32,748 nt of DNA from Candidatus Firestoneibacteriota bacterium (GTDB lineage: Bacteria; Oederibacteriota; D2-FULL-39-29; JBDRBU01), in NCBI GenBank assembly GCA_043822305.1, contig JBDRBU010000081.1:1-32748 (forward strand). Reading direction: 5' to 3'. Positions 2,584 to 30,417 of the stretch are shown piece after piece (the first letter of the stretch is position 1; each line of letters opens with the position of its first letter). Position numbers and translations under genes: made by a program. The notes below the pieces were generated by a model, which saw only the letters and a list, made by a program, of their open reading frames with translations, had not been told where the DNA came from and did not search any database.

Positions 2584-2642
2584 GGGACAGCGCCTACTTA
2601 TTTTTCTTTATATCAAATAGTAAATTAAATTGTGGCTGTCCA
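2584..2642. repeat. Short element bounded by inverted GG(G)ACAGC motifs (MITE-like or empty TIR pair)
   Basis: GGGACAGCGCCTACTTATT at 2584 (+) faces GTGGACAGCCACAATTTAATT ending at 2642 (-). Confidence 0.55.
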
Positions 2643-2652
2643 CTTTAATTGT

Positions 2653-2681
2653 ATTCTATCACAGTTATAACATAACTTCAA
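2653..2681 (-). promoter_or_regulatory. Sigma70-type promoter for the site-2 protease/trpS unit
   Basis: TTGAAG (2681..2676), 17 nt, then TAGAAT (2658..2653) with a TGn extended -10. Confidence 0.6.
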
Positions 2682-2716
2682 GTATATATTTTCAGTTGAA
2701 ATAGACCTACCCCCCC

Positions 2717-4909
2717 TTATAGGAGGCCACTAATTCTTCTTACATACCAGTCGACTGTTAAAAATATAATTATTAAAACAAAAAATATTAAAGAATCCCA
2801 AATAATAGATTTATTCGTGCTGGTTACAATTTCTACAACTGGTTTTAATTTAATATTAAAATCTGATAAATTTTGGCTATTAAAGTATTCTCCTCCTGAA
2901 TTATTTGCAATCCCAGAAAGCAACTTCTCATTCAAGAATATATCTTTATCTTCGCTGGATTGTGGAGAAACTTCAGTTATTATTACATCTTTACCCAGAT
3001 TTTTATTCCCTTTGTATGAATTAGCCCTAAGAGTATATTTCCCTATATCTTCTCCTATGAGACTACACTCGTAAATCCCATCCCCAATATACGGGATGTT
3101 ATTAAATGATAAAGTTTTTCCTGAGGGATCGGTTAAATTAATATCAACAACGGCATTATCTTCATATTGGTAATAATCATTTAAAACAGTAGTAAGCACT
3201 CTTATTGTTTCACCTTTACCATAAACTTTCTTGTCTGTGCTTACTTTAACTTGTTTTAATTCGGGTGTATTTATTAACCAATTAAACATTTGATGCCAGT
3301 ATTTACTGTAATAAAAATTTCCTTTACCAGCACCAGCTAAACCCATTGACCATCTCCAGGTAGAGTTAGTTCCAACAGATAGCACCCGACCTTGACCTTT
3401 TGGCCATATGGTTATAACCGGTAATGGAGCACCATCTGCATCTTTTAAATCCTCTGTGCCGGCTAAAACAACCGCTCCTTTTTTTGCTCTAACGAATTTA
3501 TTACAACCTTCTAACTCTGGTAAACTCTGCCATATATCTAAATTTTCTTCCTTCGTATCAGAAAGCGTATTTATTGGATGTTCTAATGGTTTAACTTTAA
3601 AAAAACCAGACTCAAACACCTCATCAAACCCACTGATTTCAACAGGCAAAATTTCCTCTATTTGAGTTCCTTTATAACCACCTCGGCCATAACTTTCATC
3701 ACCACCTATCATCACAAAAGCACCACCAAATTTTTCAACAAAGTCTTTAACACTATTTAAAAGTTCTGGGGCAAAGTATTTAATATAACTAAAATTTTCT
3801 AAAACCACTACATCAAAACTAAATATCTCTTTCGTGAAAATCTCTGTGGCCGGAAAAGGAATTAAGGTTAACTCGTTTTCCGGGAAAAATACAACATCCT
3901 CATTACTTCTAAGAATTATAAAAGAAACAACTTCGTAATTTGGATTTGTCTTTAATGCTTGTCTTAAAAACCTGTATTCAAAATTAGGACAACCAGATAA
4001 GTAAAGTATCCTTACTTTTTCTTTTAAAACATTTAAATTAAATTCCTTTAAATTATTTTCTTTATTAATTTCTCCTTTTTCAGGTGGGATTATGACCTGA
4101 AATTTCTGCAACCCTGTTTCTTTCGGAATATAGTTAAATCTTACTTCTATTTCTTTCCCTTCTTCCTTAATCTTAACAAATTTATCTGATATTACATTTT
4201 TATCTTTCTTTAAAAGAACATTTACCATCTTTCCTATGGAGTTATATCCTTTAACCTTGACTATAATATTAGTTTCCATATTTCTAAAAGCAATATTACT
4301 TACTGAAATATCGTTTATTTCTAAATCAAATCCTGTTCGAGTTGAACCAATTCCAATAGTATGCACCGGAATATCTATTGATTTTGAAACCTCTAAGGGA
4401 TCAACCAGACCATTATGATTACCGTCTGATATAAGCACTAAATTAGTATCTACGGAATCTCCTTCTTTCATTAATTCTTCTTTTACCTCTACCAACGCAT
4501 TTCCTATATCAGTAGTTTCTCCATCTAATTTTTCTAATCTTAAAATGTTTTCATAATTCATTCTAACCGGAGTACCGGCATATGTATAGCATATGACCTC
4601 ATGAGTTTTTTTAAATCCTTCAATTTTGTTTTTTAAAATATCTTTTACGACACTAAACTTATGAAACGGATATTTAATATCCATACTTTTTGAGACATCA
4701 ACCAGAACTACAACTTTTGACTTTTTATATTTTTTTTCTTCTTTAATTAAAACCGGATGCAAGAAAATAAAGATAAGAAATAAAAATATTATAGCCCTTA
4801 GAATAATTAATAACTTTTTACTTCTTTCTGCAAATTTAGCAATGTAAATTAAAGAAAAATAACCTGATATTAAAAAAATTATTATCCATAAATTAAATTC
4901 AAATTTCAT
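2717..4909 (-). CDS. Membrane protein with vWA-like, Ig-like and class-I glutamine amidotransferase-like domains
   Basis: N-terminal TM helices, VVVLVDVSKSM and LISDG (MIDAS), FVEKFGGAFVMIGGDESYG, W.W motif, C-terminal TM ending WYVRRISGLL. Confidence 0.8.
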   Translation of the reverse strand: MKFEFNLWIIIFLISGYFSLIYIAKFAERSKKLLIILRAIIFLFLIFIFLHPVLIKEEKKYKKSKVVVLVDVSKSMDIKYPFHKFSVVKDILKNKIEGFKKTHEVICYTYAGTPVRMNYENILRLEKLDGETTDIGNALVEVKEELMKEGDSVDTNLVLISDGNHNGLVDPLEVSKSIDIPVHTIGIGSTRTGFDLEINDISVSNIAFRNMETNIIVKVKGYNSIGKMVNVLLKKDKNVISDKFVKIKEEGKEIEVRFNYIPKETGLQKFQVIIPPEKGEINKENNLKEFNLNVLKEKVRILYLSGCPNFEYRFLRQALKTNPNYEVVSFIILRSNEDVVFFPENELTLIPFPATEIFTKEIFSFDVVVLENFSYIKYFAPELLNSVKDFVEKFGGAFVMIGGDESYGRGGYKGTQIEEILPVEISGFDEVFESGFFKVKPLEHPINTLSDTKEENLDIWQSLPELEGCNKFVRAKKGAVVLAGTEDLKDADGAPLPVITIWPKGQGRVLSVGTNSTWRWSMGLAGAGKGNFYYSKYWHQMFNWLINTPELKQVKVSTDKKVYGKGETIRVLTTVLNDYYQYEDNAVVDINLTDPSGKTLSFNNIPYIGDGIYECSLIGEDIGKYTLRANSYKGNKNLGKDVIITEVSPQSSEDKDIFLNEKLLSGIANNSGGEYFNSQNLSDFNIKLKPVVEIVTSTNKSIIWDSLIFFVLIIIFLTVDWYVRRISGLL

Positions 4910-5664
4910 TATTTCTTTTCCTGTTTTAACATTCTCATTTCTTCTATCTTCCTTTGTATATACTGTAAATGTATGGCGTCTAATTTATATGTTCCTGTTA
5001 AGGCATACATAAGTATATTAACTGTTAATTTCATACCTTCAAATCTTTGTTTCTCACCATATGGAATACAATCTTTTAGAAAATTACCTAACTTATCTTT
5101 TGCCCATATACCTAATAAATCATTATGCGAGTAAATAACAGCCATTTGATTGTTGTATTCTATCCCTTCTAAATAAGGGACACTAACCTTTGCCCCAACA
5201 ACTTGAGGTATTAAATAAAACGCATAAAAAATTGCATGATTATCCTTAATTCTTTCAAAATTAGAGTTCGGTATAACTCTTAAAAATTCTCTTTTTATCG
5301 CTTTATCAAATCCAAAATCCTTGATTCCTGATGTATCATCAATAAAACAAATACCTCCTCCATCAAAAAATCTTTTTAATGTTTCTATATCTCTATCAGA
5401 AAACTTATTAAACTCGGAATCTCCTGTTATGACTAAAAATGGATAGTTAAAAATCTCATCGTTATTTAATGTTATTTCTTTTCTCTCTTTTGCAGAATGA
5501 ATATTAGTTGTGGTTATTATAAAATCATAAATCTCGGGCCAACTTCCCGGATTAGGGTCATAGTTTCCCCCATTATATTTAAGCTGTATGAAAAAGAAAT
5601 TATCTTTTGAAGCAAAAGACAAATTGCAACTAATAATTAATATAATAATTATTAAAAACCTCAT
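4909..5664 (-). CDS. DUF4159 domain protein
   Basis: Signal-peptide-like N-terminus, YPFLVITG, GGICFIDD, NDLLGIW, VNILMYALTGTYKLDAIH. Confidence 0.85.
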   Translation of the reverse strand: MRFLIIIILIISCNLSFASKDNFFFIQLKYNGGNYDPNPGSWPEIYDFIITTTNIHSAKERKEITLNNDEIFNYPFLVITGDSEFNKFSDRDIETLKRFFDGGGICFIDDTSGIKDFGFDKAIKREFLRVIPNSNFERIKDNHAIFYAFYLIPQVVGAKVSVPYLEGIEYNNQMAVIYSHNDLLGIWAKDKLGNFLKDCIPYGEKQRFEGMKLTVNILMYALTGTYKLDAIHLQYIQRKIEEMRMLKQEKK

Positions 5665-7748
5665 TTAATTCTCCTTATGGAAAGGTATCCTTCTAACATT
5701 AAAAGTATTATAACTAATCCAATTAATATTTTGTTAATTTCTCTGCCTCTCAGTATGAGAATAAGTTCATTAACAATATTCTTGTAATCCCTTATAAGAA
5801 ATATCCCAGATGAAGGGATAGATTTTTTAATTTCACCAATCTCTTGTTTTCTCAAATCAGATTCCTTACTTTTTACATCTAAATTTACAGTAAAATACTC
5901 TGTCTTAATTAAACCACCAGAAAAAACATATCTTAACTTATAAATACCCACTTCTTCTAACTCTTTAAACTCTATTTGATTATTTGATATTAAGGACAAT
6001 GGAACAACTTTATTTGAAGGTAAAACTATTTCTACTTTTTTGGGTAAATTATTCAAGGGAAATGTTTTTCTGTAAATATCTCCAACATATATACTTTTTT
6101 GAATTTCTTTTTCTTGCTCTTTTGTCAAATAATCTACAATATTTTGCATAAAAGGTAAATAAATAGCCCTTAACGGGAAATTACTCCAATCTCTGTCAGC
6201 CGGAAACGGGAATATTAATATTTTACCAAACTTAGTATATTTAAAATCTTTCTCGATAATACCTGGCAAATTACTTTTAAAATTTGCTAAAACTTTAGTA
6301 TCGCTTTTTGGCCGGACATAGTAATGTTTATTAAAAATAACTCTTTCAAATCCTTTAATATCTAATGATTTAAATAAACTGTGATTTTGACTAATACTAT
6401 TTACATCAATTATATCTTCTTTCTCAATTACTTGAATAATATCAGCCGGGAAAACTTCCTCGTTGAATTTCTTGTAATCTTCTATATTAATCTTATCTCC
6501 CAGAAAATAAATCAGATTTCCGCCTTTTCTAACATAATCAATTAATCTTTTCGCAACACTTTGTGAAAGTTTAGAAACATTACATAAAAATATAATACTA
6601 AAATCATCCAAATTTTTCCATTCTAACTCCTCTGGCACACATACCGTAGAAGATATTTTAGATTCCAATTTTAAATCCGGACTGAAGGCTAATCTTAAAT
6701 AAAATGTCTCACTTAAAAACTGTGATAATTTCACATCACCATCAACACATAAAACTTTCTTTTTCTCTTCTACATCTAATTTAACATAATAAACATTATC
6801 TAATGTTAATCCATCTTCAATATCTAATTTTACATATCCTGAATAATTATCTTTCCTTTTGAAATTGTAAAACAAATTCTTTGATATTTTTCTATAGCCA
6901 TCAATTCCAAAAAATCCATATCCACATTTTTGTTCATTTATAGATAAAAATACTGGAACTTTGAAAAATCGGACAGGTGAGAAATTTTCAACTTCAACAT
7001 TTATTTTTACCTGGTCTTTTATAAAAAAAGACTGCACAACTTCATTTATGGCTATATTTGATATCTCTTGGCCTAGATCAACAAAAATTATCTTAATATT
7101 TTTATCAAAATTTGATAAAATTTTCTCATCAAGAGAACTAAATCCGTGTTTTGCAAAATCTGTTACAAATATTATTTGTTTATTGGTAATATTACTTTCT
7201 TTTAATATAGAATAACCATAATTTAGTCCGGATAATATTGAAGTGGTTCTCTGGGATATTTTAGCCCTTTTAATTTTCTCTGTTAAAAGTTTTGTATTGG
7301 AAGTTAAATTACTTGTAACGGGAACTATTTTGTCAGATAAAAGCGAAAAACAAACCTTATCATAACTTCTTAACACCTTTAATATATTCTCACAAACACC
7401 TTTTCCTGTTTCAAATTCTGAAGATACTCCCAGGGAATAGGAATTATCCAAGATTAAACAAATGGCTAAGGGTTCATCTTGATTTTTTGAAAGAAATCCT
7501 GATTGTTGTAATATAGGCCTGGCAAAAGCAAAAATAAGAAAAGTTATTATTAAAATTCTTAAAAGAAGTAAAAGATACTGCCATAACCTTATCTTCTTTA
7601 TCGTCCTTGTAACTGCAAGTTTTATAAACTTAATCTCGCTAAACGCAAGAATTCTGGCTTTCTTTATAGATAATAAATGAATAATAATAGGAATAATAAG
7701 TAAAGGCAGAGCTAAAAGAAAATATGTATTAAAAAATGATAGATTCAC
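5661..7748 (-). CDS. BatA-domain / vWA-domain membrane protein
   Basis: N-terminal LLALPLLIIPIIIHLL...LLLLLRI...AFARP (BatA), LILDNSYS (MIDAS), C-terminal TM. Confidence 0.85.
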   Translation of the reverse strand: MNLSFFNTYFLLALPLLIIPIIIHLLSIKKARILAFSEIKFIKLAVTRTIKKIRLWQYLLLLLRILIITFLIFAFARPILQQSGFLSKNQDEPLAICLILDNSYSLGVSSEFETGKGVCENILKVLRSYDKVCFSLLSDKIVPVTSNLTSNTKLLTEKIKRAKISQRTTSILSGLNYGYSILKESNITNKQIIFVTDFAKHGFSSLDEKILSNFDKNIKIIFVDLGQEISNIAINEVVQSFFIKDQVKINVEVENFSPVRFFKVPVFLSINEQKCGYGFFGIDGYRKISKNLFYNFKRKDNYSGYVKLDIEDGLTLDNVYYVKLDVEEKKKVLCVDGDVKLSQFLSETFYLRLAFSPDLKLESKISSTVCVPEELEWKNLDDFSIIFLCNVSKLSQSVAKRLIDYVRKGGNLIYFLGDKINIEDYKKFNEEVFPADIIQVIEKEDIIDVNSISQNHSLFKSLDIKGFERVIFNKHYYVRPKSDTKVLANFKSNLPGIIEKDFKYTKFGKILIFPFPADRDWSNFPLRAIYLPFMQNIVDYLTKEQEKEIQKSIYVGDIYRKTFPLNNLPKKVEIVLPSNKVVPLSLISNNQIEFKELEEVGIYKLRYVFSGGLIKTEYFTVNLDVKSKESDLRKQEIGEIKKSIPSSGIFLIRDYKNIVNELILILRGREINKILIGLVIILLMLEGYLSIRRIK

Positions 7749-8632: not shown

Positions 8633-8639
8633 ATGATTT

Positions 8640-9647: not shown

Positions 9648-9658
9648 ATGGTCTCCTT

Positions 9659-13833: not shown

Positions 13834-13902
13834 GGGGTCTGGTCTATAAACCTCTTAACCACAGAGAACACAGAGTGATATTTTAATAATATTCCTTGCA
13901 GA

Positions 13903-13935
13903 GAAGATACCATCCACAAAGTTAGTGGTATCTTC
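13903..13935. terminator. Hairpin directly after the HEPN stop codon (possible terminator or REP-like palindrome)
   Basis: GAAGATACCA (13903..13912) / TGGTATCTTC (13926..13935): perfect 10-bp stem, no clear U-tract. Confidence 0.4.
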
Positions 13936-14323
13936 ATAAGTTCTTTTTAATGCCAATAATAAATTCCTCTGCAAGTTTAACAAACTCAGTAGCATCTTCA
14001 AAGGACAATTCCATTAATTCCTTATAGTCTTCTTCTTGTCTTACCTTAAACATTCTATGTAATATTTTTGAATAATGCTTATCAATTTTTCCTGTATGCA
14101 CAAACTCTTTGTCAAATATAGAAATAACACCCATATGTTTAGATGTCTTTATGCTTATATCAGTTTTTAAGAAAAGGGCTAAAACCATATAAAACATAGA
14201 ATAGTAGGCCCTATTTATTATGGACCTTGGACTCAGATTGTTCTGTAACATCTTTTTAGCATCAGAAAGAGTCTCTTCTGCCTGGTTCAACCTATAGGTG
14301 AAAAGAATCTCACTGTCTGTCAT
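13934..14323 (-). CDS. HEPN domain protein
   Basis: A.ETL.DA, NRAYYSMFY, KTSKHMGVIS.F, R.EEDY. Confidence 0.88.
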   Translation of the reverse strand: MTDSEILFTYRLNQAEETLSDAKKMLQNNLSPRSIINRAYYSMFYMVLALFLKTDISIKTSKHMGVISIFDKEFVHTGKIDKHYSKILHRMFKVRQEEDYKELMELSFEDATEFVKLAEEFIIGIKKNL

Positions 14324-14637
14324 ACTTTCACCCCTTCTGTTATAATATTTTTCACTATTGGAGATACTTTTAATGGAGATTTCTCAATTTCAGCCCTCGT
14401 AAAAATCAGTGGAGAGATAAAAATAAAATGTTCAAACCCAACTTCCCATACTGTATCAAAAATTTTTTCCTTTAACTCTCTATTAAGTAATTCGACCTCA
14501 AGGAAAATATCCATATCTGAATATTCATCGCTATCGCCACGTGCCCTTGAACCAAATATCCGAAAGTCAATCAATTGAACATCTTTGAATAATCTTTCTT
14601 TTAGTTCTTTAGCTATTTCATAATCTTTTTGTTTCAT
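14320..14637 (-). CDS. Minimal nucleotidyltransferase (MNT), partner of HEPN
   Basis: FGSRARGD...SDMDI; 4-nt ATGA overlap with the HEPN gene. Confidence 0.9.
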   Translation of the reverse strand: MKQKDYEIAKELKERLFKDVQLIDFRIFGSRARGDSDEYSDMDIFLEVELLNRELKEKIFDTVWEVGFEHFIFISPLIFTRAEIEKSPLKVSPIVKNIITEGVKV

Positions 14638-14655
14638 CCTTTACCTCTTGTACGA

Positions 14656-14684
14656 ATTATATACTATATTACAAATAATTTCAA
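14656..14684 (-). promoter_or_regulatory. Sigma70-type promoter of MNT-HEPN
   Basis: TTGAAA (14684..14679), 17 nt, TATAAT (14661..14656), followed by a gagg SD. Confidence 0.7.
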
Positions 14685-14688
14685 TAAT

Positions 14689-16110
14689 TTAATCTCCTCT
14701 CATCTCTTTTTTAGCTTCAACTATTACTTCATCTAAACAACTAACACCATCTTTTACTGCTTCCTTTGTTATGACCAAAGGCGGTGAAATTTTAACAGTA
14801 CCACCTCCAAATCCAACTGGTGCAAAAAGCATTAAACCTTTTTCCACACATTTACCAACAATAAGATGAGCTAAATCACCATCCGGTTCTTTAGTACCTT
14901 TTTTAACTAGATGAACACCGCAAACAAGACCTTCCCCATCAACTCCCCCGACTATATCTGAATGTTTGTTTTTTATTTTCAACAACTCTTCTTTTAAAAC
15001 TTTACCAATCTTAGCCGCATTTTCTGCGAGTTTATATTTTACAATATAATCTAAATTTGCTATCGCGGCGGCAATACATACTGGATTACCTGTATGTGTA
15101 CTTGTCATTGTATTGGGGTCGCATATATCCATAACATCTGCTCGTCCTATGACCGCAGATAATGGCAAAGAACTCGTTATACCTTTACCGAAAGTAGCCA
15201 GGTCTGGAACTATCTCATAATGCTCAAAACCAAACATTTTACCTGTCCGGCCAAATCCTGCTTGTATCTCATCCATAATCAAAAGAATCTTATTCTCATG
15301 GCAGTACTGTCGCAATCTTTTCATAAAACCTTTTGGTGCAAATGCTGCACTTCCACCTTGATATGTTTCTAATATTATCCCGGCTATTTGAACTTTAGAT
15401 TCGGTTTTTAATTCGTTTTTAATATACTTTGTAAAATTATCAAAACACTCATCGTCACATTTCTGATAACTTGATTTTCCCCAAGGACATCTAAAACAAT
15501 TTGGGAATGGTGCCTGATTAATATCTTTGTCATAGTTAACTATCCATTTTTTTAAGGCTGGAATACCTCCCAGAAACTGTGCTCCTAATGTTCTTCCATG
15601 AAAAGCATCTTTAAATGAAATAATCCCTATTTTTCTCTTATCAGCAATTTTCTGTCCCCAGGTTCTGGCTAATTTTAATGCTACTTCAACTGCTTCAGAA
15701 CCAGTAGTTAATAAAAATACTTTTTTTAAAGGATATGGTGCTAAATTTGAAAGTTTTTCAGTTAATTTTGCTCTTAATTCTGAAGGGAAACAATAGTTAT
15801 GTAGTAGCCCATGATTAACCTGTTTTATAATCGCTTTTTTAATTTCAGGATTACCATGACCCGAACTTGCTACTAAAACCCCGCAACTAAAATCAAGCCA
15901 TTTATTCCCGAATTTATCATAGACATTAACACCTTCTGCTTTATCCCACAAGGCAAGTGGCTGACCTGACATTGACCTTGGCTCATATTTTCTTAACTTT
16001 TTCAATATTGGAATGGATTTTGGTACAGGAAAACTCGTAGAAACAATCCTCCTGAATGGGGTACTTACCTTTTTAATCTTTTTTACCTTCATCTCATATT
16101 CTTTTGCCAT
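14689..16110 (-). CDS. Class-III PLP aminotransferase (GABA/ornithine aminotransferase-like)
   Basis: TGSEAVE, FHGRT, DEIQAGFGRTG, PDLATFGKG, THTGNP. Confidence 0.92.
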   Translation of the reverse strand: MAKEYEMKVKKIKKVSTPFRRIVSTSFPVPKSIPILKKLRKYEPRSMSGQPLALWDKAEGVNVYDKFGNKWLDFSCGVLVASSGHGNPEIKKAIIKQVNHGLLHNYCFPSELRAKLTEKLSNLAPYPLKKVFLLTTGSEAVEVALKLARTWGQKIADKRKIGIISFKDAFHGRTLGAQFLGGIPALKKWIVNYDKDINQAPFPNCFRCPWGKSSYQKCDDECFDNFTKYIKNELKTESKVQIAGIILETYQGGSAAFAPKGFMKRLRQYCHENKILLIMDEIQAGFGRTGKMFGFEHYEIVPDLATFGKGITSSLPLSAVIGRADVMDICDPNTMTSTHTGNPVCIAAAIANLDYIVKYKLAENAAKIGKVLKEELLKIKNKHSDIVGGVDGEGLVCGVHLVKKGTKEPDGDLAHLIVGKCVEKGLMLFAPVGFGGGTVKISPPLVITKEAVKDGVSCLDEVIVEAKKEMRGD

Positions 16111-19718: not shown

Positions 19719-19942
19719 TTTACTTGTTTTATTTTATAGTATTGAACTATACTATTTGCAAGCAGACCACTACAAATTTTTTCTATTTCTTTTTTTGAAA
19801 TTTTTCCTTTTATAATATAAACCTGACCTGTTTTTACCTCTTTCACACCAGTTATTCCTAAGTCACTTATACCTTTTTTAACACTATCTCCAACAGCATC
19901 AGTAACACCAGTTTTATACCACACCTCAATCTCCCATTTCAT
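19715..19942 (-). CDS. purS: FGAM synthase subunit PurS
   Basis: 75 aa, GVTDAVG...LLANSIVQ.Y; directly upstream of purL. Confidence 0.93.
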   Translation of the reverse strand: MKWEIEVWYKTGVTDAVGDSVKKGISDLGITGVKEVKTGQVYIIKGKISKKEIEKICSGLLANSIVQYYKIKQVK

Positions 19943-19982
19943 TTACACCTCCCATAAAAGGGGACAGACACCCTATTTATTT

Positions 19983-20975: not shown

Positions 20976-21964
20976 ATCACCTTACCTTTCTGTGCTGATT
21001 CTAACACAGCCAGTGCAACTTCTAATGACTTATATGCATCTTCAAATGTAACTTTTGGTTTAGAATTAAACCTGACATAATTAATAAAATCCTCTATCTC
21101 CAGTAAGTTTGCATTTTCATCAACTAGATTTTCCTTAAATACTTCACCCGAATCTAATTCCAAAGTTAAGGCCGAAGGTGTTTTACTATCATATGATAGT
21201 AAACCTTTATTACCGCAGATTTCGATATAACTTCTAAACCCAGTAGGATTTGACCAGCTTGCTTCTAAATGAGCTATAACACCGTTTTTAAACCTTAAAA
21301 TTGCAAGAGCATAATCCATATTTAAATTAGTCTCTGCATTGTTTAAACTTTTTGCATATACCCTTTTTACATCACCAAAACACCATCTTAAAAAATCTAT
21401 ATCATGAATCATTAAATCTAAAATAACTCCACCACTTTTATCGAAAGAATTAAACCAGCTATTCCCTCTCTTAAACCTTACACTTCTTGTAGCTCTGGCC
21501 ACTACGGGATTTCCTATACTTTTTTGGTCTATTAAATTTTTAATTGAAATATACTGGTTAAAATATCTAACTATATGGCCAACCATAATTTTAGATTTAT
21601 TCTTTCTTATTAACTTAGCAATTTCATCCGCTTCATCCATCGTCCTGCATAACGGCTTTTCTACAAACACAGCCCTGCCTTGCATTATACTTTCAATTAT
21701 ATATAATTTATGAGTATCTGTTGGCGTACATATATTTACAATATCGCTTTGTTTTATTAATTCTTTGTAATCCTCAAATCCTCTGAGACCATAGTCTTTT
21801 ATTTTTTTCAAATCAACATCATATGCACCTATAACATTTATCCCTTTTATCTTCCTGTAACAATCAAAATGTTTTTTACCCATCTTCCCAAAACCAATAA
21901 TTCCAACTTTAGCAACCTTAGCAACCCTAGGGTCAAACCTTGAATGTGGAATGCAAGATAACAT
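20963..21964 (-). CDS. Gfo/Idh/MocA family oxidoreductase; its first ~12 residues come from the adjacent transposase element
   Basis: VGIIGFGKMG, VFVEKP, GGVILDLMIHDID. The nearest in-frame start upstream of the Rossmann motif is ATG 21964 inside the element, with GGAGG 9 nt upstream. Confidence 0.88.
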   Translation of the reverse strand: MLSCIPHSRFDPRVAKVAKVGIIGFGKMGKKHFDCYRKIKGINVIGAYDVDLKKIKDYGLRGFEDYKELIKQSDIVNICTPTDTHKLYIIESIMQGRAVFVEKPLCRTMDEADEIAKLIRKNKSKIMVGHIVRYFNQYISIKNLIDQKSIGNPVVARATRSVRFKRGNSWFNSFDKSGGVILDLMIHDIDFLRWCFGDVKRVYAKSLNNAETNLNMDYALAILRFKNGVIAHLEASWSNPTGFRSYIEICGNKGLLSYDSKTPSALTLELDSGEVFKENLVDENANLLEIEDFINYVRFNSKPKVTFEDAYKSLEVALAVLESAQKGKVIWIK

Positions 21965-22904
21965 TTATTCTATCCTCCAATTCTTTTTGATTTCTCATCT
22001 GTTTAATTATCCGAACAATAACTTTACTTACAGCACTTCTACTTACTCCAAATAACTCTCCTATTTCCCTATTGTCTAATCCCGTATGCCTACCCAAAAT
22101 ATACATACCTACATCTCTGGCTACTTCTGGCTTATCTATTTTACGATTTATTAATCTATCCTTCTCCACCCCAAATTCTTTTCCTACCTCATCTAATACC
22201 CTTTCTATAATTTTATTATCTCCTAACATCCTTTGTTGTGGTAATTCATCACTCATAGACTTTCGATTAATAAATTCCTTTTGTATCCGACTGATAAACT
22301 TTTCACTTCCTAAAACTAATCCATACTTTATATCTTCTAAAACCTTCCTTTCCCGCCCACATACCTCTATTATTAATTTCCTATATTTAATCTGTGCATC
22401 TTGTTTACTTTCACTAAGTTCTTTTAATATCTCTTCAGATAATACCCATCTGTGTACCTTTTCGGGTCCTACATAATCATGATAACTACTCCATCGGTAA
22501 TCATTTAATTCATTAACCATCCCTGCACAAATTGGATTTAGGTGAATATAAAAACTTAAGTTCTGCCAGTAAGATTCCTCACCAACAAGAATACTTTTAT
22601 ATCGCCCTTGAAAAAGATGTCCACTTCTTTTGTGCTTTAAATTATAGTAAACACTATAAGATGTCTGCAACCATTGCATAGATTTAGAAAGATTTGCCTC
22701 AGGTGTTCGTAAAAGCAAATGGTAATGATTTCCCATCAATACAAAGGCAAAAATTTCTAATTTAAACTTCTCTACTGTCCGCTTTATACACTCTAAAAAT
22801 CGAAGGCAATCTTCATCAGAAAGAAAAATCACTCCCTTCTCAATACCTCTGGACATAACATGATAAATTGCACCTTTATATTGAATTCTCCATTGTCTTG
22901 CCAT
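21933..22904 (-). CDS. REP-associated tyrosine transposase-like (IS200/Y1 HUH) protein with C-terminal DnaA-C-like HTH
   Basis: YHVMSRG, NHYHLL (HUH), GHLFQGRYKS, YIHLNP, YRWSSY; C-terminal ARDVGMY...REIGELFGVSRSAVS. Confidence 0.9.
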   Translation of the reverse strand: MARQWRIQYKGAIYHVMSRGIEKGVIFLSDEDCLRFLECIKRTVEKFKLEIFAFVLMGNHYHLLLRTPEANLSKSMQWLQTSYSVYYNLKHKRSGHLFQGRYKSILVGEESYWQNLSFYIHLNPICAGMVNELNDYRWSSYHDYVGPEKVHRWVLSEEILKELSESKQDAQIKYRKLIIEVCGRERKVLEDIKYGLVLGSEKFISRIQKEFINRKSMSDELPQQRMLGDNKIIERVLDEVGKEFGVEKDRLINRKIDKPEVARDVGMYILGRHTGLDNREIGELFGVSRSAVSKVIVRIIKQMRNQKELEDRINVILHSTFKV

Positions 22905-22947
22905 AATATTGTTTATATTACCATATTATACTACACTAATCAATGTG

Positions 22948-22989
22948 CATTCCACAGGCATCATTTCACATTCCGCATTCCACATTCAA
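22948..22989 (+). repeat. Subterminal 7-bp tandem repeat
   Basis: cattcca-caggcat-catttca-cattccg-cattcca-cattcaa. Confidence 0.8.
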
Positions 22990-24746
22990 GGTTTGACCCC
23001 ATAATTTTTTGCGGTGCGTGGGACAAACCGCATTTCGTATAATTTTTTATAAAGAGAATTTCCAGATATTAACTCATCATGTTCACCCATCGCGACTATC
23101 ATTCCATTATCCATAACCACTATTTTGTGAGAATTAATCACTGTTGACAGTCGGTGAGCTATAACTATTGTTGTTCTGTTTTTCATTAAATTATTCAATG
23201 CCTCTTGAACTAATCTTTCAGATTCAGTATCTAAAGCAGAAGTGGCTTCATCCAATATCAAAACAGGAGGATTTTTAAGAACGGCCCTGGCCATAGCCAT
23301 TCTTTGTCTTTCACCACCTGATAATTTAACTCCTTTTTCACCTATAAATGTATCATACCCATTCTGTGTTTTTAATATAAAATCATGAGCATTAGCTGTT
23401 TTGGCCGCTATGATAATTTCATCAAAATTAGCATCTGTCCGGCCATAAGCAATATTGTTTCTAATTGTATCATTAAACAAAATTGTCTCCTGGGCAACTA
23501 AACCGAACTGTTCTCTTAACGAACTTATTTTAATATTTCTTATGTCAATCCCATCTACCTCTAATCTACCCGATGTCAAATCGTAAAATCTCGGGATTAA
23601 ATCAACAAGAGTGGATTTCCCGGATCCAGAAGGACCAACAATAGCCACAATCTCTCCTTTTTTAATTTCAAGATTTATATCTTTTAAAACTAATTTATCT
23701 TTTCTATAGCCAAAATTAACATTAACAAATGATATTTTCTCTTTAAAAGGCAACATATTTTTTGCATTTGGCTCGTCTTTAACCTCGAAAGATGTATCAA
23801 GAATTTCAAAAACCCTTTCAGCTGATGATATCGCCTGCTGTATAGCCATATTCACTCCATTTAAATTTTTTATAGGGTTAAATAGTAAAAATAACGCTCC
23901 AGTGAAACTTGCAAACGAACCAATGGTTAAATGTCCACTGCTGATTTGATAACCACTTACAATTATCAAAATAGAAATCGCTATTATGGCTATAAACTCT
24001 ATAATTGGATGTGACATGGCCGTAACCCTAACGGCTTTCATATATGTATCGAAAAAACTCCGGTTAACTCCTTTAAACTTCTCAAGTTCATAATTTTCCA
24101 TATTAAACGCTTTTACTATCCTAGTATTAGTAATACCCTCATGAGCGACAGAAGTTATATCACCAATTTTATTTTGGGCAGATATACTTATATTTCTTAA
24201 TTTTTTACCAAATCTGTAAATTGGCAAAACAATAATCGCACACACCCCAAATGAAAGCAGGGCTAATTCCCAATTCATTTTTAAAACAACACACGCTAAT
24301 CCTAAAAATGTAAATCCATTACTTAATATACTACAAATACTACCAACTGCATTTTGCATATTAACTACATCCGTCGTAATTCTGGAAAGAATCTGCCCTG
24401 TTTTATGTGAAGTAAAATAGCTAAGCGAGAGATACTGAATATGATTGTAACTTTGATTTCTTATATCCATGGTTATCTTCTGACCAACATTGTTAAGTAA
24501 ATAATCCTGAATATAAAATGCTAATCCTTTAACAAAATATATACCCACAAGACAAAGAGCAATACGCTTTATTACTTCAAATGCAGCTTTACCGTCAGCA
24601 TTTAAAAATCCCTTGTCAAATAAAGGCTTAAGCAAATACATAGAAGAAGCATTGCAAATAGAAACAAGCAACATGCATATGATGGCTATAAGAATTCTAT
24701 GTTTATAAGGTTTAGCATATTTAAGTATTCTTAAAAATATCTTCAT
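22986..24746 (-). CDS. msbA: ABC transporter permease/ATPase, lipid A flippase MsbA-like
   Basis: TM domain plus GPSGSGKS, LSGGERQR, ILDEATSALD, IAHRLST; near lpxB. The symbol rests partly on context. Confidence 0.8.
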   Translation of the reverse strand: MKIFLRILKYAKPYKHRILIAIICMLLVSICNASSMYLLKPLFDKGFLNADGKAAFEVIKRIALCLVGIYFVKGLAFYIQDYLLNNVGQKITMDIRNQSYNHIQYLSLSYFTSHKTGQILSRITTDVVNMQNAVGSICSILSNGFTFLGLACVVLKMNWELALLSFGVCAIIVLPIYRFGKKLRNISISAQNKIGDITSVAHEGITNTRIVKAFNMENYELEKFKGVNRSFFDTYMKAVRVTAMSHPIIEFIAIIAISILIIVSGYQISSGHLTIGSFASFTGALFLLFNPIKNLNGVNMAIQQAISSAERVFEILDTSFEVKDEPNAKNMLPFKEKISFVNVNFGYRKDKLVLKDINLEIKKGEIVAIVGPSGSGKSTLVDLIPRFYDLTSGRLEVDGIDIRNIKISSLREQFGLVAQETILFNDTIRNNIAYGRTDANFDEIIIAAKTANAHDFILKTQNGYDTFIGEKGVKLSGGERQRMAMARAVLKNPPVLILDEATSALDTESERLVQEALNNLMKNRTTIVIAHRLSTVINSHKIVVMDNGMIVAMGEHDELISGNSLYKKLYEMRFVPRTAKNYGVKP

Positions 24747-25468
24747 TTTACTAATGGACCTCCAAGTTTTTTAATAGCTCTTCTAATCTTTAATACACAC
24801 TTATCTATATTACCTATTATTTCTGGTTCTTTCAATCTTAAAATACACCAGCCAGATTTTCTAAGTGCCATGTCCCTTAAAGCATCTTTTAACCTTTGAC
24901 TTTTAATTGAATGCCATTTTGAACTATCACCTTCTATATTAAGTGGACCTCTTTTACAAAATATCACGAAATCCAACCTGTATCTTCTGCAATCTGACAA
25001 ACGAAAAGTATGTTCACGCAAAGATTTTATTTTGTGCTTTCCTAATGTCAAGCCCAGCATATCCTCAATAGGGTTAACATCAAACAATTCTGTGATATTT
25101 CTTGCTCTTTTTAATTTTTCAAAAGTTGTAAATCCAAACGATATTCTCATCCTGCTTTTATTTCTCACTGGACTTTTAAGTTTAAATATTTTTCTAAATT
25201 TTAATTTGTAATATTCATCATTGGCATTTGGATGATCAAACTCTTTTGGCAAAATCTTTATTCTCTTTAATGTTTTGTAACTAATCGGTTCCGCATAATA
25301 TCTTATAGAACTCCCTGATTTACCAAATGTAGCCGGTTGATAAAAAGCAATATAATCTGCTTTCCTTTTTGGCAGGCTAAAAACAGGAATTCTATACCAT
25401 TTTTCTTTAAGCAAAACATTAAGGTCTTTACGATTTTTTAAAACGGCAATTAATACTATTTCAGACAC
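24743..25468 (-). CDS. DUF559 (Vsr-like PD-(D/E)XK) endonuclease with an N-terminal WYRIP domain
   Basis: C-terminal YRLDFVI...IEGDS..WH...D..RD..L...GW.ILR; N-terminal WYRIPV...IAFYQ...IRYYA. Confidence 0.75.
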   Translation of the reverse strand: MSEIVLIAVLKNRKDLNVLLKEKWYRIPVFSLPKRKADYIAFYQPATFGKSGSSIRYYAEPISYKTLKRIKILPKEFDHPNANDEYYKLKFRKIFKLKSPVRNKSRMRISFGFTTFEKLKRARNITELFDVNPIEDMLGLTLGKHKIKSLREHTFRLSDCRRYRLDFVIFCKRGPLNIEGDSSKWHSIKSQRLKDALRDMALRKSGWCILRLKEPEIIGNIDKCVLKIRRAIKKLGGPLVK

Positions 25469-26574: not shown

Positions 26575-26583
26575 ACACCACCT

Positions 26584-27198
26584 TCAAATCACCATTATTA
26601 TTCCGTTTATTAAAAAATATAATCCTACAAGTAATGTGGCTACCTGTGAAATTTCCTGAATCTTAGTAAATTTTGAGAAATATGAACTAAATATCACTGG
26701 CCATAAAAACAAAGTTGTTGCAAGAAAAAAGCCGAAAGAAAAAATCAAAGCAGAAAAAATACTACCCAGAGAGATTAAAACTGACAGACTAACTAAAAAC
26801 GGTGGGCAAATATTAATTCCTACTAAAAACCCAGATATAAATGGAAATCTTTTAATCAGATTTGACCTTCCTGCGATTTTGCATAAACCTATTTCCGGAA
26901 AATTTTTAGTAAATCCATAAATAAGTAAAATCAAACTTGTAATAATTATTAAAATACCTATAATTCTTTTATCTAATATTTCTTTAGTCTGCTCTCCAAC
27001 AATACCAAAAATTAAACCAAAAATCAAATAAGCCATTAACCTGCCTGTCAGGAATTCAAGAATAACCAAGATACTATTTCTTAATTTTCTTTCTTCAGAA
27101 AGAAAATAAGGAACTAAAAAAGGAACGCATGCAATCAAACAAAATCCACCTGTACTTAATCCTAATCCAAATCCTTCAAAAAAAGGGGTCAGAGTCAT
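26584..27198 (-). CDS. Membrane protein, TauE/SafE or DsbD_2 (cytochrome c biogenesis-like) family
   Basis: About six hydrophobic segments, CLIAC, GRLMAY, G...CPP. Confidence 0.7.
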   Translation of the reverse strand: MTLTPFFEGFGLGLSTGGFCLIACVPFLVPYFLSEERKLRNSILVILEFLTGRLMAYLIFGLIFGIVGEQTKEILDKRIIGILIIITSLILLIYGFTKNFPEIGLCKIAGRSNLIKRFPFISGFLVGINICPPFLVSLSVLISLGSIFSALIFSFGFFLATTLFLWPVIFSSYFSKFTKIQEISQVATLLVGLYFLINGIIMVI

Positions 27199-27207
27199 TT
27201 TTTCCTT

Positions 27208-27942
27208 AAAAGGGGTCAGAGTGATTTTTTTGGTCTTCCTTTCTCTTTAAAAACTACATTTCTACATAATCTCTTTGAGAGTTCACTAATAAACTCTTTA
27301 CTTCCAATAACTGTACCTTTTTGTGTTGCATCTCTAACCATTTTTAATTCTTCATCAGAAATGCTGTTTAAAAACAATTTTTTATAATTTGTTTGTCTCT
27401 CCTTTTCTGTCCCACCTAAACCAATATAAATAGGATCAGGTTCAAGAAGACTATTCATCTTTCCTTCCGCTTTATATCCAAAACTTGACCAGCAATAATC
27501 CACCGGATTGCTCACTATCCCTGCTCTTACTGGATTTAACTCTATATATCTACTGCATGCTAAAAGATATTCATCTTTATCTACCAGGCTACTTTTAAAT
27601 CTTCCCTCCCACAATGTACCTGTTCTTTTATATTTCCAATTGATGTATTGCACATACCTTCTACCTAATGACTGTATCACATTTCCAAGACCACTTTCTG
27701 TTAAAGGTTCAACAAGTAAATGGACATGATTTGTCATTAGACAGTAAGCGTAGATTTTTGAACCCGTCTTTTCTTTTGATTCTTTCAAACACCTTATGAA
27801 AAAACACCTATCTTCATCACTATAAAAAATTACATTCCTATTATTCCCTCTTAAAATAATATGGTGAGGATATCCAGGAACAACTATTCTTGATTGTCTT
27901 GGCATAATTAGTTCTGTTAACAAAATTGACTCTGACCCCTTT
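27208..27942 (-). mobile_element. Second Y1/HUH transposase element with AAAGGGGTCAGAGT inverted repeats
   Basis: Motif at 27208..27222 (+) and 27929..27942 (-), with further copies at 27181..27195 (+) and 29249..29263 (-). Confidence 0.8.
27216..27905 (-). CDS. REP-associated tyrosine transposase-like (Y1 HUH) protein
   Basis: MPRQSR, HHIILRGNNR, YCLMTNHVHLL, GTLWEGRFKS, YIELNPVRAG, YCWSS, C-terminal GRPKK. Start set at ATG 27905. Confidence 0.92.
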   Translation of the reverse strand: MPRQSRIVVPGYPHHIILRGNNRNVIFYSDEDRCFFIRCLKESKEKTGSKIYAYCLMTNHVHLLVEPLTESGLGNVIQSLGRRYVQYINWKYKRTGTLWEGRFKSSLVDKDEYLLACSRYIELNPVRAGIVSNPVDYCWSSFGYKAEGKMNSLLEPDPIYIGLGGTEKERQTNYKKLFLNSISDEELKMVRDATQKGTVIGSKEFISELSKRLCRNVVFKEKGRPKKSL

Positions 27943-29233
27943 ATTTTAAATAACCTAAATACTCTGGTTGGGCTTTAATCATTTTATTAAAGATTTCTTT
28001 CGCATCGTTTATATTCCCAATCATAGGTTCCGCTATTAATGCCTGAAATGCTTTTTTTCTGTCTTTTTCAACAGAGGCTTCCACAGCTAATTTTAATTTT
28101 ATACTCTGGCTTAAAACATTCCAATAAACACTATCCGGAATATTACCAACATATATTCCATTAGGACCATTTGCATTAACTAAAGTTGGGAGTTCTAAAA
28201 CAGAATCATCTGGCATATTTGACACGCACCCGTTATTTAAAACATTTAAATTATAAATCTTAGGAGTATTATTCATTATACTTTCAATAACGGCTGTGCC
28301 TTTTTCACCCGAAGGTTCAAATAAATCTTTTACTGGTTCGCCTTTTATAGCCTTAACAATTCTTTCATATTTAATCTTCCTGTCTTTCATCATCAAAACT
28401 AATGCATCCAATCTTAATTCTAAATTCCATATCTTTTTATAATTAACTTCTTTTCTTAAATAATACGGGAAAAACTCTACGACATGCTTTTCCCCTCCAC
28501 CAGGCATGAACCCAAAAAGTTTATACAAATCAAACCTACACTTCATTTTTTCTGGATATCGGGAGTTTTTTGCGTATTCATCTAAAACAGGTTTTAAACT
28601 TTTACCATTAGACTTAATATCTAATATCCAGACACAATGATTTAAACCGGCATAATTAGTTGTAATGGTCTCAAAAGGAACTTTTGCTAATTCGGCTATA
28701 TCATTTACTGTGGCCATAAAATCATGACACATTCCCATTGCTCTAATTTTTGTATACTTATAAACAGCCTGGCATATAGAAGTCATAGGATTTGTGTAAG
28801 TAAGTAAAATAGCAGTTGGACAGACCTTTTCCATATCTTTGCCTATATCAATTACGGCCGGAACAAATCTTAATGTTCTAAAAACTCCGCCTGGACCGAC
28901 TGTATCTCCAACAGATTGCAAAATTCCAAATGATAAAGGTATTCCTATATCCTGTTTATGGCATGCAAATCCTCCAACATTTATTGATAAAAAAACAAAA
29001 TCAGCTCCATTCAAAGCCTTTTTTCTATTTTTTTCAACTTTAATTTTTAATCCAGACTTTATCTCTTCCTTCAATCTTAAACCATATTTATACATTAAAC
29101 TTGACAGTTCCTGGTTCGGATCATATAAAACCAATTCTGATTCATTTAAATATTTAGAAAGCAAACAATCTTTTATTATCCCCGGTGTAAAAAGTAAACT
29201 ACCAGATCCAACAACAACTATTTTTTTCTTCAT
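27941..29233 (-). CDS. Glycoside hydrolase family 4 (NAD-dependent, alpha-galactosidase/glucosidase-like)
   Basis: KIVVVGSGS, GDTVGPGG, YTNPM, GMCH, GLNHCVW. Start set at 29233 (aggagg SD, TAATG overlap with kbl). Confidence 0.9.
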   Translation of the reverse strand: MKKKIVVVGSGSLLFTPGIIKDCLLSKYLNESELVLYDPNQELSSLMYKYGLRLKEEIKSGLKIKVEKNRKKALNGADFVFLSINVGGFACHKQDIGIPLSFGILQSVGDTVGPGGVFRTLRFVPAVIDIGKDMEKVCPTAILLTYTNPMTSICQAVYKYTKIRAMGMCHDFMATVNDIAELAKVPFETITTNYAGLNHCVWILDIKSNGKSLKPVLDEYAKNSRYPEKMKCRFDLYKLFGFMPGGGEKHVVEFFPYYLRKEVNYKKIWNLELRLDALVLMMKDRKIKYERIVKAIKGEPVKDLFEPSGEKGTAVIESIMNNTPKIYNLNVLNNGCVSNMPDDSVLELPTLVNANGPNGIYVGNIPDSVYWNVLSQSIKLKLAVEASVEKDRKKAFQALIAEPMIGNINDAKEIFNKMIKAQPEYLGYLK

Positions 29234-30417
29234 TAAATACTCCTCCTTACTCTGACCCCTTTTATAACTTTTATAACAAAATCTAAATCTTTTTTTGTTA
29301 AACATGCTGACATTTGAAATCTTACACGAGCCTTTCCTTCTGGAACAACCGGATAACCAAATCCAACAACAAAAATACCGTATTTAAACAACTCATTACT
29401 TAATTCTATTGCTTTTTTTGTTTCACCTATCATTAAAGGAATAATGGCTGATTCTCCTTCGATAGGATTAAGCCCTATCTCCTTCAACTTACTTCTAAAG
29501 TATTTTATATTTGACATAAGTTTATTAACAAGAGATGGATTTTTTTCTAAAATCTCTATGGCCTTTAATGAACTTCCGGCAACTACCGGAGGTAAAGCAT
29601 TTGAAAAAATCTGAGGTCTTGAAACCTGATTTAAATAATCAATTAGTGATTTACTTCCAGCAACAAAACCACCGGCTGCTCCACCAAGTGCCTTGCCAAG
29701 TGTACTGGTTAATATATCAACCTTACCTTTTAATCCAAAATACTCAATAATTCCTTTTCCCCTTTTCCCTAAGACACCAGTTCCATGTGAATCATCAACA
29801 ATAACAACAGCATTATATTTTTCTGCAAGTTCACAAATTACATCAAGTTTTGCTACATCGCCTTCCATACTAAAAACACCGTCTGTAAATATAAACCTTT
29901 GGTTAAATTTAGATGATTCTTTCAAAATTACTTTGAGCATTTCCATATCAGAATGTTTATAAATCTTTTTTTCAACATTTTTGCAAATTCTAATCCCATC
30001 TATTAAACTCGCATGATTAAGTTCGTCTGAAATAACTACATCTTCCGGAGAACAAATAGCAGGAATAAGTCCTGTATTCGCTGCCCAGCATGAAACATAT
30101 GTTAAAGATGATTCAAATTCAAAAAATTCTGCAATCTTTTTTTCTAATTTTTTATGAATAGTAAATGTTCCACAAATAAATCTAACTGATGCTGTCCCGG
30201 CTCCATACTTTTTTAATGTATCTATGCCTGCTTTAATAACTAATGGGTTGTTGGCTAATCCCAGATAATTATTTGAAGAGAAAACCAATGTTTTCTTCTT
30301 ATCAATAATTACTTCCCTATCCATTGGGCTATCTATTTCTCTAAAAATTTTAAATGTTCCTTTTTCTTTCATTTCATCTGATTTTATATTTAATATTTTT
30401 ATAAAATTGTTATTCAT
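29233..30417 (-). CDS. kbl: Glycine C-acetyltransferase (2-amino-3-ketobutyrate CoA ligase)
   Basis: SNNYLGL, SVRFICGT, NHASLIDG, DGVFSMEG, DDSHG, TLGKALGG; adjacent to tdh. Confidence 0.93.
   Translation of the reverse strand: MNNNFIKILNIKSDEMKEKGTFKIFREIDSPMDREVIIDKKKTLVFSSNNYLGLANNPLVIKAGIDTLKKYGAGTASVRFICGTFTIHKKLEKKIAEFFEFESSLTYVSCWAANTGLIPAICSPEDVVISDELNHASLIDGIRICKNVEKKIYKHSDMEMLKVILKESSKFNQRFIFTDGVFSMEGDVAKLDVICELAEKYNAVVIVDDSHGTGVLGKRGKGIIEYFGLKGKVDILTSTLGKALGGAAGGFVAGSKSLIDYLNQVSRPQIFSNALPPVVAGSSLKAIEILEKNPSLVNKLMSNIKYFRSKLKEIGLNPIEGESAIIPLMIGETKKAIELSNELFKYGIFVVGFGYPVVPEGKARVRFQMSACLTKKDLDFVIKVIKGVRVRRSI

Follow-up and report, generated by a model that had tools for sequence, protein, structure and literature searches.

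RAYT-like genes that are flanked by terminal inverted repeats (TIRs), not by repetitive extragenic palindromes (REPs), have been described as TIRYTs and the corresponding elements as TIRtrons, many of which share the motif GGGGWSAS (Di Nocera, De Gregorio & Rocco 2013; PMC3733652). The passages of that paper cited here also state that several different TIRYTs may occur per genome, and that "moderately abundant families of TIRs" are found as singles, dimers or groups in some species. In the sections of Quentin et al. 2018 (PMC6006769) devoted to these genes, 20 of 26 described TIRYTs are placed in TnpA-Y1 subclass 2.1, the terminal consensus is given as GGGG[AT][CG]A[CG], and the C-terminal helix-turn-helix (HTH) domains of the subclass include Bac_DnaA_C, HTH_23 or HTH_28. 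Here we analysed a contig of Candidatus Firestoneibacteriota bacterium (GCA_043822305.1, JBDRBU010000081.1), on which a GGGG(A/T)C(A/T) motif recurs at gene junctions and near two Y1/HUH transposase genes. This whole contig of 32,748 bases, designated C81, is referred to as the window. We estimate a probability of roughly 85% that the window carries two TIRtrons of ~0.75-1.07 kb, each composed of one TIRYT gene between GGGGWCA-tipped inverted repeats, plus five loose ends of four families. This system adds an unusually rich example to the known TIRtron/TIRYT class. It shares with that class the RAYT-like Y1/HUH gene, the GGGGWSAS inverted ends, the dispersed repeat families and the presence of several cassettes per genome, and it shows no difference in kind, being a rich case with five cassettes and at least 140 end copies in a genome of 2.15 Mb (125 contigs, 31.6% G+C). 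The terminal signature GGGG(A/T)(C/G)A, which the original prediction made from the window sequence had given for some RAYT-like transposases, is correct, because it corresponds to the published GGGGWSAS motif and to the consensus of Quentin et al. 2018.

The two cassettes are composed of the following parts, with left and right end repeats abbreviated as LE and RE, and open reading frames as ORFs.

27927..27942, minus strand: LE of cassette A, AAA followed by GGGGTCAGAGTCA, with the head G at 27939 and the stop codon TAA of the GH4 glycosidase gene 1 nt outside the head
27216..27905, minus strand: TIRYT-A gene, encoding 229 aa when read from ATG 27905, with TTG 27923 as the start of the longest ORF; the stop codon TGA (27218-27216) is that of the RE head
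27212..27224, plus strand: RE of cassette A, GGGGTCAGAGTGA, a G-for-C variant
22975..23000, minus strand: LE of cassette B, 26 nt, GGGGTCAAACC... with internal repeats of the GGAATG type; holds the msbA stop codon TGA (22988-22986)
21933..22904, minus strand: TIRYT-B gene, 323 aa, with a Y1/HUH domain and a putative DnaA-like HTH at the C-terminus
21930..21954, plus strand: RE of cassette B, inverted relative to the LE and identical to it over 25 nt; its head provides the TGA stop codon of TIRYT-B (21935-21933)

Gene A thus has AAAGGGGTCAGAGTCA directly upstream and the reverse complement of this sequence twice directly downstream, the inverted repeat measuring 16 nt, while gene B is located between two perfect inverted 25-nt copies of GGGTCAAACCTTGAATGTGGAATGC. 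Both proteins match the Pfam family Y1_Tnp (9.1e-15 for TIRYT-A and 2.3e-13 for TIRYT-B). The sequence of TIRYT-A shows the motifs HVH and RYIELNP, and the motif pairs HVH/HYH and RYIxxNP/FYIHLNP of the two proteins are, we assume, those of the Y1/HUH family. At the C-terminus of TIRYT-B, Bac_DnaA_C reached 30.6 bits as compared to a cutoff of 31.5, accompanied by weak DnaA hits, and this putative DnaA-like HTH would fit the domain composition given in the cited sections of Quentin et al. 2018. Pfam and NCBIfam profile scans recognised no HTH in TIRYT-A (229-235 aa).

Searches of the genome by tblastn with both proteins revealed five RAYT-like genes with 25-39% mutual identity, i.e. the two in the window and one each on contigs C51, C68 and C100, as well as a fragment on contig C14. 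All five genes are bracketed by inverted repeats starting with (G)GGG[AT]CA (perfect matches of 13-25 nt; 12-22 nt at the three cassettes outside the window). The end sequences define one family per cassette: GGGGTCAGAGTCA in A, GGGGTCAAACC... in B, GGGGACAGCGAC... in C (on C51), GGGGACAGACACC... in D (on C100) and GGGGACACAATAC in E (on C68). The outermost motifs of A (GGGGTCAG), of C and D (GGGGACAG) and of E (GGGGACAC) fit GGGGWSAS. Four of the five end sequences are dispersed in the genome in units of ~17-26 nt, amounting to 140 copies of which 118 are single, whereas for family E the two flanking copies alone are real. Counting exact 12-mer cores and those with at most one mismatch, respectively, we obtained 25 and 47 copies for family A, 7 and 18 for B, 23 and 43 for C, and 12 and 45 for D, as compared to chance levels of 0.02-0.05 exact copies and ~2 copies with at most one mismatch (95th percentile 6) in 300 composition-matched shuffles.

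These numbers bear on the trivial explanation that the motif family arises by chance in a genome poor in G. The bare heptamer GGGGWCW does agree with chance in the window, where 10 matches face 6.00±2.57 expected ones and 11 of 100 shuffles reach 10, and two of the eleven sites listed in the original prediction, together with all three matches inside coding sequences (CDSs), are singletons. However, the extended 12-mers occur in 7-25 exact copies, far above the expectation just given, and perfect inverted repeats of 13-25 nt flank all five Y1 genes. Chance is refuted for nine of the eleven listed sites, and as an account of the family it is almost certainly wrong.

The original prediction had treated the eleven sites as one family linked to the two HUH genes of the window. 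The exact GGGGWCW pattern is absent at 2584, 2642, 2716 and 21930, which carry GGG or another variant. Most of the sites belong to real repeat families: eight are clear members of such dispersed families and 2642 is a degenerate, probable member, whereas 2716 and 13834 are chance singletons. Expressed as copies of the respective 12-mer in the 2.15-Mb genome, exact and with at most one mismatch, the family A sites yielded 25/47 (27185 and 27939), 2/31 (27212) and 1/33 (29259), the family B sites 7/18 (23000) and 10/22 (21930, register +1), and the family D site 19960 yielded 12/45. Site 2584 belongs to the GGGACAGCGCC subfamily near family C (8/25) and site 2642 is a degenerate GGGGACAGCCAC-type copy (2/15), while 2716 and 13834 have one exact copy each and 4-8 copies with one mismatch. 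The link to the window's own genes holds insofar as both are bracketed by inverted copies; it does not extend to 2584, 2642 and 19960, whose cognate genes are located elsewhere (C51, C100) or missing from the assembly. The in-CDS matches at 15659, 18648 and 20145 are single exact copies lacking the repeat tail. Apart from the cassette ends, the sites are as follows, with SD denoting the Shine-Dalgarno sequence.

29248..29259, minus strand: loose family A copy truncated to 12 nt, situated within the final codons of the gene for the class I/II aminotransferase and running into the GH4 SD (AAGGAGG)
27185..27197, plus strand: extra LE-type family A copy, 27 nt head-to-head past the RE of cassette A; together with T27198 it makes the DsbD2-like ATG and encodes MTLTP
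19960..19978, plus strand: loose family D copy, GGGGACAGACACC followed by CTATTT, filling the 40-nt gap from the Gfo1 stop to the purS SD; cognate cassette on C100
2583..2603, plus strand: loose copy of the GGGACAGCGCC subfamily related to family C, directly preceding the SD of the M50-like gene; the family C cognate cassette is on C51
2622..2643, minus strand: degenerate copy of the GGGGACAGCCAC subfamily, GTGGACAGCCAC..., forming a heads-outward doublet with the copy at 2583
2698..2716, minus strand: G-run after the vWA stop, single copy in the genome and outside the system
13834..13844, plus strand: GGGGTCTGGTC adjoining the helicase ATG, present once in the genome and outside the system

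The pairing of enzyme and repeat is conserved between species. The six closest homologues of TIRYT-A in the genome collection searched, with 63-71% identity and encoded by metagenome-assembled genomes titled Candidatus Omnitrophota or "bacterium", all carry ends of the form AAAAGGGGTCAGAGT[CG]A. The G-for-C variant, which encodes the enzyme's own stop codon, is present at the right end in all six and at the left end in two. In none of the six loci did we find another window gene within 1.5 kb, which shows that cassette A is located in a different context in each genome. A more distant clade (41-51% identity, several phyla) has a different, equally conserved end, AAAAGGGGAC[AG]GATTTATTT. Considering 37 loci with near-full-length A-type homologues, strict GGGGWSAS is found inverted on both sides in 21 and a loosened form in 28. 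B-type homologues in the phylum share at most 39% identity, and as many as 14 matches are found in a single genome. Of 29 such loci, 26 are flanked by inverted repeats of 14 nt or more and nine show the strict motif; as in cassette B, short direct repeats inside the end typically follow the GGGG head. Altogether, a TIRYT homologue is present in 30 of 41 sampled genomes of the phylum, the window's own genome included.

In the loose copies, the match with the end repeat has a median length of 17-18 nt (14-16 nt in family B). Just 3-4 copies per family run into LE- or RE-specific interior sequence, and for this reason we consider the loose copies to be bare ends; decay from full cassettes was ruled out as their origin on the same grounds. 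Eleven close pairs were found. Eight of these are inverted, and all eight have their heads outward like cassette ends, none inward; the 2583/2643 pair of the window has the same form. These heads-outward doublets look like gene-less mini-cassettes.

A further gene-less mini-cassette of 175 bp was observed on contig C14 (C14:21342-21516). Its left end is of the GGGTCAAACCT type and its right repeat of the B type, and it also contains a promoter-like TTGACA...TAGGATAAT and the final ~70 nt of a gene resembling that of TIRYT-B. Its internal SD-ATG heads an ORF of 711 aa, whose N-terminus resembles a lipoprotein signal after 12 element-derived residues. Another loose family B repeat is located at the 5' end of an enolase ORF (C87:~21447-21500; MSSFR-IPHSRFDP-ISKVMGREILDSRGNP...). 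We read this copy as a putative in-frame insert of 27 nt, because the N-terminus resembles that of an ordinary enolase once the insert is removed.

The genome also contains other repeats. A palindromic repeat of ~30 nt (TTTACCCACGCACC-ACCAGAG-GGTGCGGGGTTTAC) has 27 copies genome-wide that are partly tandem with a 30-nt period (e.g. C27:5246-5340, C51:10509-10570), and a partial look-alike is present at 23005-23030 (minus strand) of the window, in the extended tail of msbA, immediately preceding the family B repeat. Another family, of GC-rich hairpins (GTCGGGGTC-AGAGAC-GACCCCGAC) with 30-40 copies (e.g. C18:23227, C66:16483, C87:30047, C100:57137) has its first 10 nt in common with family A, yet it is a separate REP-like element, some copies of which have a second hairpin nested in the loop. 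Other over-represented genomic 10-mers are AGGGGGTTGT (118 copies), GGGGGTTAGGGG (~67), GGTAGTCGCAGGCT (~59) and AGCCGTGAGGA (30).

Three other known systems invite comparison. The REP/REPIN-RAYT systems, also called REPtrons, were reportedly described by Nunvar in 2010, Bertels & Rainey in 2011 and Ton-Hoang in 2012. They resemble the present system in having a related enzyme, a gene enclosed by a short repeat in inverted orientation, further copies of which are scattered over intergenic regions, one enzyme per repeat family, and inverted doublets. However, REPs are imperfect palindromes rich in GC that bear a GTAG tag and fold into stable hairpins, whereas the ends found here are non-hairpin, tipped with GGGGWCA, devoid of GTAG and mostly single. 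IS200/IS605 elements (IS608, ISDra2) are likewise small, with a Y1/HUH transposase, no obvious target duplication and probably single-strand chemistry, but their ends are subterminal hairpins in the same orientation instead of inverted repeats; the NCBIfam model transpos_IS200 reached 17.3 and 19.3 bits with the two window Y1 proteins (cutoff 55). Integron attC arrays also place short repeats at junctions in runs of co-oriented genes. In contrast, the window lacks both an integrase of this type and any array of accessory cassettes without promoters, and the repeats are separated by housekeeping genes whose order is conserved.

According to the original prediction, nearly all motifs contain or abut a start codon, a stop codon or an SD. 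Indeed, the msbA stop and both transposase stops are part of repeat heads, the DsbD2-like ATG lies within a copy, the GH4 stop and the GH4 SD adjoin copies, and the gap preceding the purS SD is filled by one. The MsbA C-terminus reads LYEMRF plus 12 residues up to the TGA within the LE of cassette B; five relatives end 3-7 residues past LYEMQF. The DsbD2-like ATG (27198-27196), which lies within the family A copy at 27185, starts a protein reading MTLTP... as compared to MDA... in the sole homologue of the order. In relatives, Gfo2 starts with M-x-K-V-G-I-I-G. Here, no start codon is left at that point, and the ORF begins at ATG 21964 inside the 3' end of the TIRYT-B gene, behind a GGAGGA SD, and reads through the RE, which adds 16 N-terminal residues. 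This extension now also holds a tandem 9-nt duplication (GTTGCTAAG GTTGCTAAA; window 21905-21930, minus strand), which immediately adjoins the outer side of the right end of cassette B; at cassette A, similarly, an additional end copy is found 27 nt past the right end.

To be read with these cases is the position of the motif in the genome as a whole, for which crude longest-ORF gene calls were used (2,041 genes, 92% coding; stop positions exact, start positions not). Of 370 GGGGWCW copies, 35% are intergenic as compared to 8.1% of the genome, ranking second among 105 patterns of the same composition, and 24% lie within 20 nt of a CDS end versus a median of 5% for these patterns. The intergenic excess is due to GGGGTCA and GGGGACA, not to GGGGTCT and GGGGACT. 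Enrichment at gene boundaries beyond the intergenic expectation, which had been proposed as a check, was also obtained: 57 of 77 copies located wholly between genes are at most 20 nt away from a CDS end, as compared to 40.9±3.3 and a maximum of 52 in 2,000 trials with uniform placement per gap, and 27 are within 5 nt (17.5±2.9 expected). The proximity is one-sided. The stop codon is usually 0-10 nt away from a GGGG head that faces it (15 of 19 in family A), and tail-side distances are spread. Moreover, a TAA within 5 nt of the head is the called stop codon of the neighbour in 19 of 78 copies, as compared to 7.7% of comparable TAA sites (p = 6e-6). This is most simply explained by a repeat that brings its own TAA/TGA and is tolerated in dispensable gene tails. 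Between co-directional genes, 35 copies have sense and 28 antisense orientation, i.e. there is no bias with respect to transcription, which was taken as a proxy for replication; a ratio of 18 antisense to 1 sense copies within ORF 5' ends is probably an artefact of longest-ORF calling and was not used. About a third of all gene pairs in the genome overlap, and three of the five cassettes contain the start of the gene downstream of them.

Such positions could also be expected if the loose copies were sites under selection by the host, serving in protein binding, RNA processing or stability, or translational coupling, with the TIRYT genes as their domesticated maintainers. In keeping with this idea, 63 of the 91 copies between two called genes (140 copies in all) separate co-directional genes, heads are 0-10 nt away from stop codons far more often than tails, the TAA adjoining the head is used as a stop at the frequency given above, and the ends are conserved between species at 63-71% protein identity. 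REPs, in addition, are described in PMC3733652 as affecting mRNA stability and as supplying stop codons through their termini. That paper, in the passages cited, makes the latter point for REPs and not for TIRs; the use of repeat-borne stops and starts by neighbouring genes is documented here for TIRs. However, the copies show no orientation preference and weak hairpin potential, several unrelated families coexist, and copies also occur within coding sequence, such as at the enolase 5' end if the presumed in-frame insert is accepted. The excess of stop codons, finally, follows simply from the repeat's own TAA/TGA landing in dispensable gene tails. We therefore regard selection of the copies by the host as improbable.

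In the window, nearly all genes are encoded on the minus strand. As assigned by Pfam, from high to low coordinates, they comprise a class I/II aminotransferase, the GH4 glycosidase, the first Y1_Tnp gene (27216-27923), a DsbD2-like membrane protein, lpxB, a DUF559 endonuclease-like gene, an msbA-like ABC exporter, the second Y1_Tnp gene with the DnaA-like C-terminus (21933-22904), two Gfo/Idh/MocA oxidoreductases, purS, purL, purQ, NikR, a class III aminotransferase, a nucleotidyltransferase/HEPN pair, a large helicase, CinA, a MoxR-DUF58-BatA-DUF4159-vWA set, an M50-like gene and a class I tRNA synthetase; purS, absent from the Pfam scan, was named by its position and by 74-82% tblastn matches adjoining purL in relatives. 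For synteny, the regions at lpxB, purL, helicase and vWA were compared by tblastn with 11 genomes of the same order, which belong to other families of the order and whose LpxB is 45-53% identical. A genome of the same family or genus was not found among the genomes searched, and a metagenome scan with LpxB yielded 13 loci, all with at most 40% identity, which show just a distant Gfo-like-lpxB-msbA order.

The original prediction had proposed that the HUH enzyme inserts or excises genes at junctions by way of the loose copies, which would be recombination sites or footprints, and that this could explain a patchwork of unrelated genes; such a model would amount to an integron-like cassette platform. 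The neighbours are, however, housekeeping genes for lipid A and purine synthesis, and the order (GH4)-lpxB-(DUF559)-msbA-Gfo2-Gfo1 is conserved, msbA and Gfo2 being adjacent in all five loci that have both and GH4 and lpxB in two of six. Conservation likewise includes purS-purL-purQ (7 of 7), AT3-helicase (6 of 7), helicase-CinA (3 of 6), the MoxR-DUF58-BatA-DUF4159-vWA set and M50-tRNA synthetase (2 of 2). No cassette is present at either insertion point in any of the same-order relatives compared, which makes both TIRtrons plain insertions into a conserved string, an outcome that the original prediction had itself named as counting against its model. Thus, both full elements interrupt a string that is kept intact without them, instead of bounding variable genes. 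GH4, located between two family A copies, was ruled out as a passenger gene, as its adjacency to lpxB is common to two relatives.

A different picture arises at the loose copies. Synteny is kept across the cassette sites in GH4-lpxB-msbA-Gfo2-Gfo1, but all three evaluable junctions with a loose copy, namely M50|vWA, purS|Gfo1 and GH4|aminotransferase, are breaks, as compared to neither of the two full-cassette junctions and three of 14 junctions without a repeat (19 evaluable junctions, six breaks). For loose copies alone this corresponds to a Fisher p of 0.02 (3/3 versus 3/16 others). Shuffling would also accommodate the DsbD2-like gene, which is found in just one of the 11 same-order genomes and sits by cassette A between GH4 and lpxB, i.e. 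between genes that are adjacent in two relatives, as well as the heads-outward copies at 29259 and 19960, which bound the conserved GH4...Gfo1 block. Nevertheless, the association is gone when all five repeat-bearing junctions are considered (Fisher 0.26), and the breaks MoxR|CinA, AT3|NikR and NikR|purQ carry no repeat. The copies at 29259 and 19960 do not share a family, nor do they have a common cognate enzyme. We do not read the value of 0.02 as causal, since spacers at operon borders tolerate both repeats and rearrangements and are expected to hold both, the copies are of different families, a single window is concerned, and the relatives, being distant and from other families of the order, leave the breaks neither datable nor attributable to the repeats. 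Blocks conserved in these distant genomes, with the cassettes as added parts, do not amount to a gene-cassette platform, and we consider shuffling of genes at these junctions very improbable. The tempting reading as a new cassette system was removed as unsupported.

Two further loci of the window deserve mention. The nucleotidyltransferase/HEPN pair (13934-14637, minus strand), a toxin-antitoxin-like module between the class III aminotransferase and helicase genes, faces a gap of similar size (~1 kb) in relatives, in which tblastn detects no homologue. The DUF559 gene, which is REase_MTES_1575-like (24743-25468, minus strand) and overlaps both of its neighbours lpxB and msbA, has a counterpart at the equivalent position in three of six same-order relatives and is absent from the other three; it is thus a variably present, possibly selfish gene inside the lipid A cluster.

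The reading of both cassettes as TIRtrons is based on what was directly observed: their architecture, the copy numbers, the pairing of gene and repeat, its conservation across species, the differing contexts and the insertion into a conserved string. How such elements operate may be envisaged by analogy with TnpA of IS200/IS605 and with TnpA-REP. Each TIRYT would recognise its own repeat, the shared GGGG head being the catalytic contact and the variable inner part conferring specificity. The enzyme would cut and rejoin single-stranded DNA at the repeat, whereby cassettes and bare ends could be copied to new places, and copies would survive only where they are harmless, i.e. in the very short spacers of a genome that is 92% coding. 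Because the repeats carry TAA/TGA on one side and A+TGA (= ATG) when read in the opposite direction, it is common for adjacent genes to terminate or begin within them. Single ends may have arisen through independent copying or as precise footprints. Catalysis, the single-strand mechanism and the origin of single ends are inferred from this analogy.

Several observations weigh against this reading. REP_Tyr_transpos, the best NCBIfam model for both window Y1 proteins, scored 74.2 bits for TIRYT-A and 69.6 bits for TIRYT-B, i.e. slightly under its cutoff of 80, and the family B head GGGGTCAA ends in A and thereby departs from GGGGWSAS at the last position. The DNA folding energy of the loose copies (mean -0.9 to -2.8 kcal/mol) is not better than that of a flank-swapped control. 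As the copies make unconvincing hairpins, recognition of the kind known from IS200 and REP elements is not evident, and recognition has to differ from the analogy used above because the ends are not hairpins. Furthermore, no presence/absence polymorphism was observable, as there is no close relative among the genomes searched and a look-up of sequencing runs, in which excision joints might be seen, came back empty. A full-text literature search retrieved no TIRYT biochemistry and no work later than Di Nocera 2013 and Quentin 2018.

A REP-like hairpin structure of the loose copies had been considered and was dropped, given that column covariation is weak (best pair 0.74 observed versus 0.50 expected) and folding equals the control. 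For the TIRtron ends, recognition could instead involve pairing of both ends of the single-stranded cassette, or binding of the duplex through the C-terminal HTH.

For annotation, our data imply that the stops or starts of msbA, Gfo2, the DsbD2-like gene and the class I/II aminotransferase gene lie in repeat-derived sequence. One might go further and suppose that TIRtron ends are adapted to gene boundaries as portable punctuation, with a ready stop at the head (TAA-A-GGGG, or the TGA in TGACCCC) and a ready SD-ATG in the other direction or at the cassette 3' end. This is a long shot, prompted by the observations that cassette B and the mini-derivative on C14 feed one internal SD-ATG into unrelated genes and that three of five downstream genes start inside elements. 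If true, an element or bare end could replace the terminus of a neighbouring gene without silencing the operon; a bolder extension would have HUH-mediated joining between heads of different families help to reshuffle operon blocks. TIRYT elements are widespread, and a genome with five enzyme/repeat pairs, numbering 8 to ~45 copies each, represents a good natural test set for the recognition of a non-hairpin inverted repeat by Y1/HUH enzymes.

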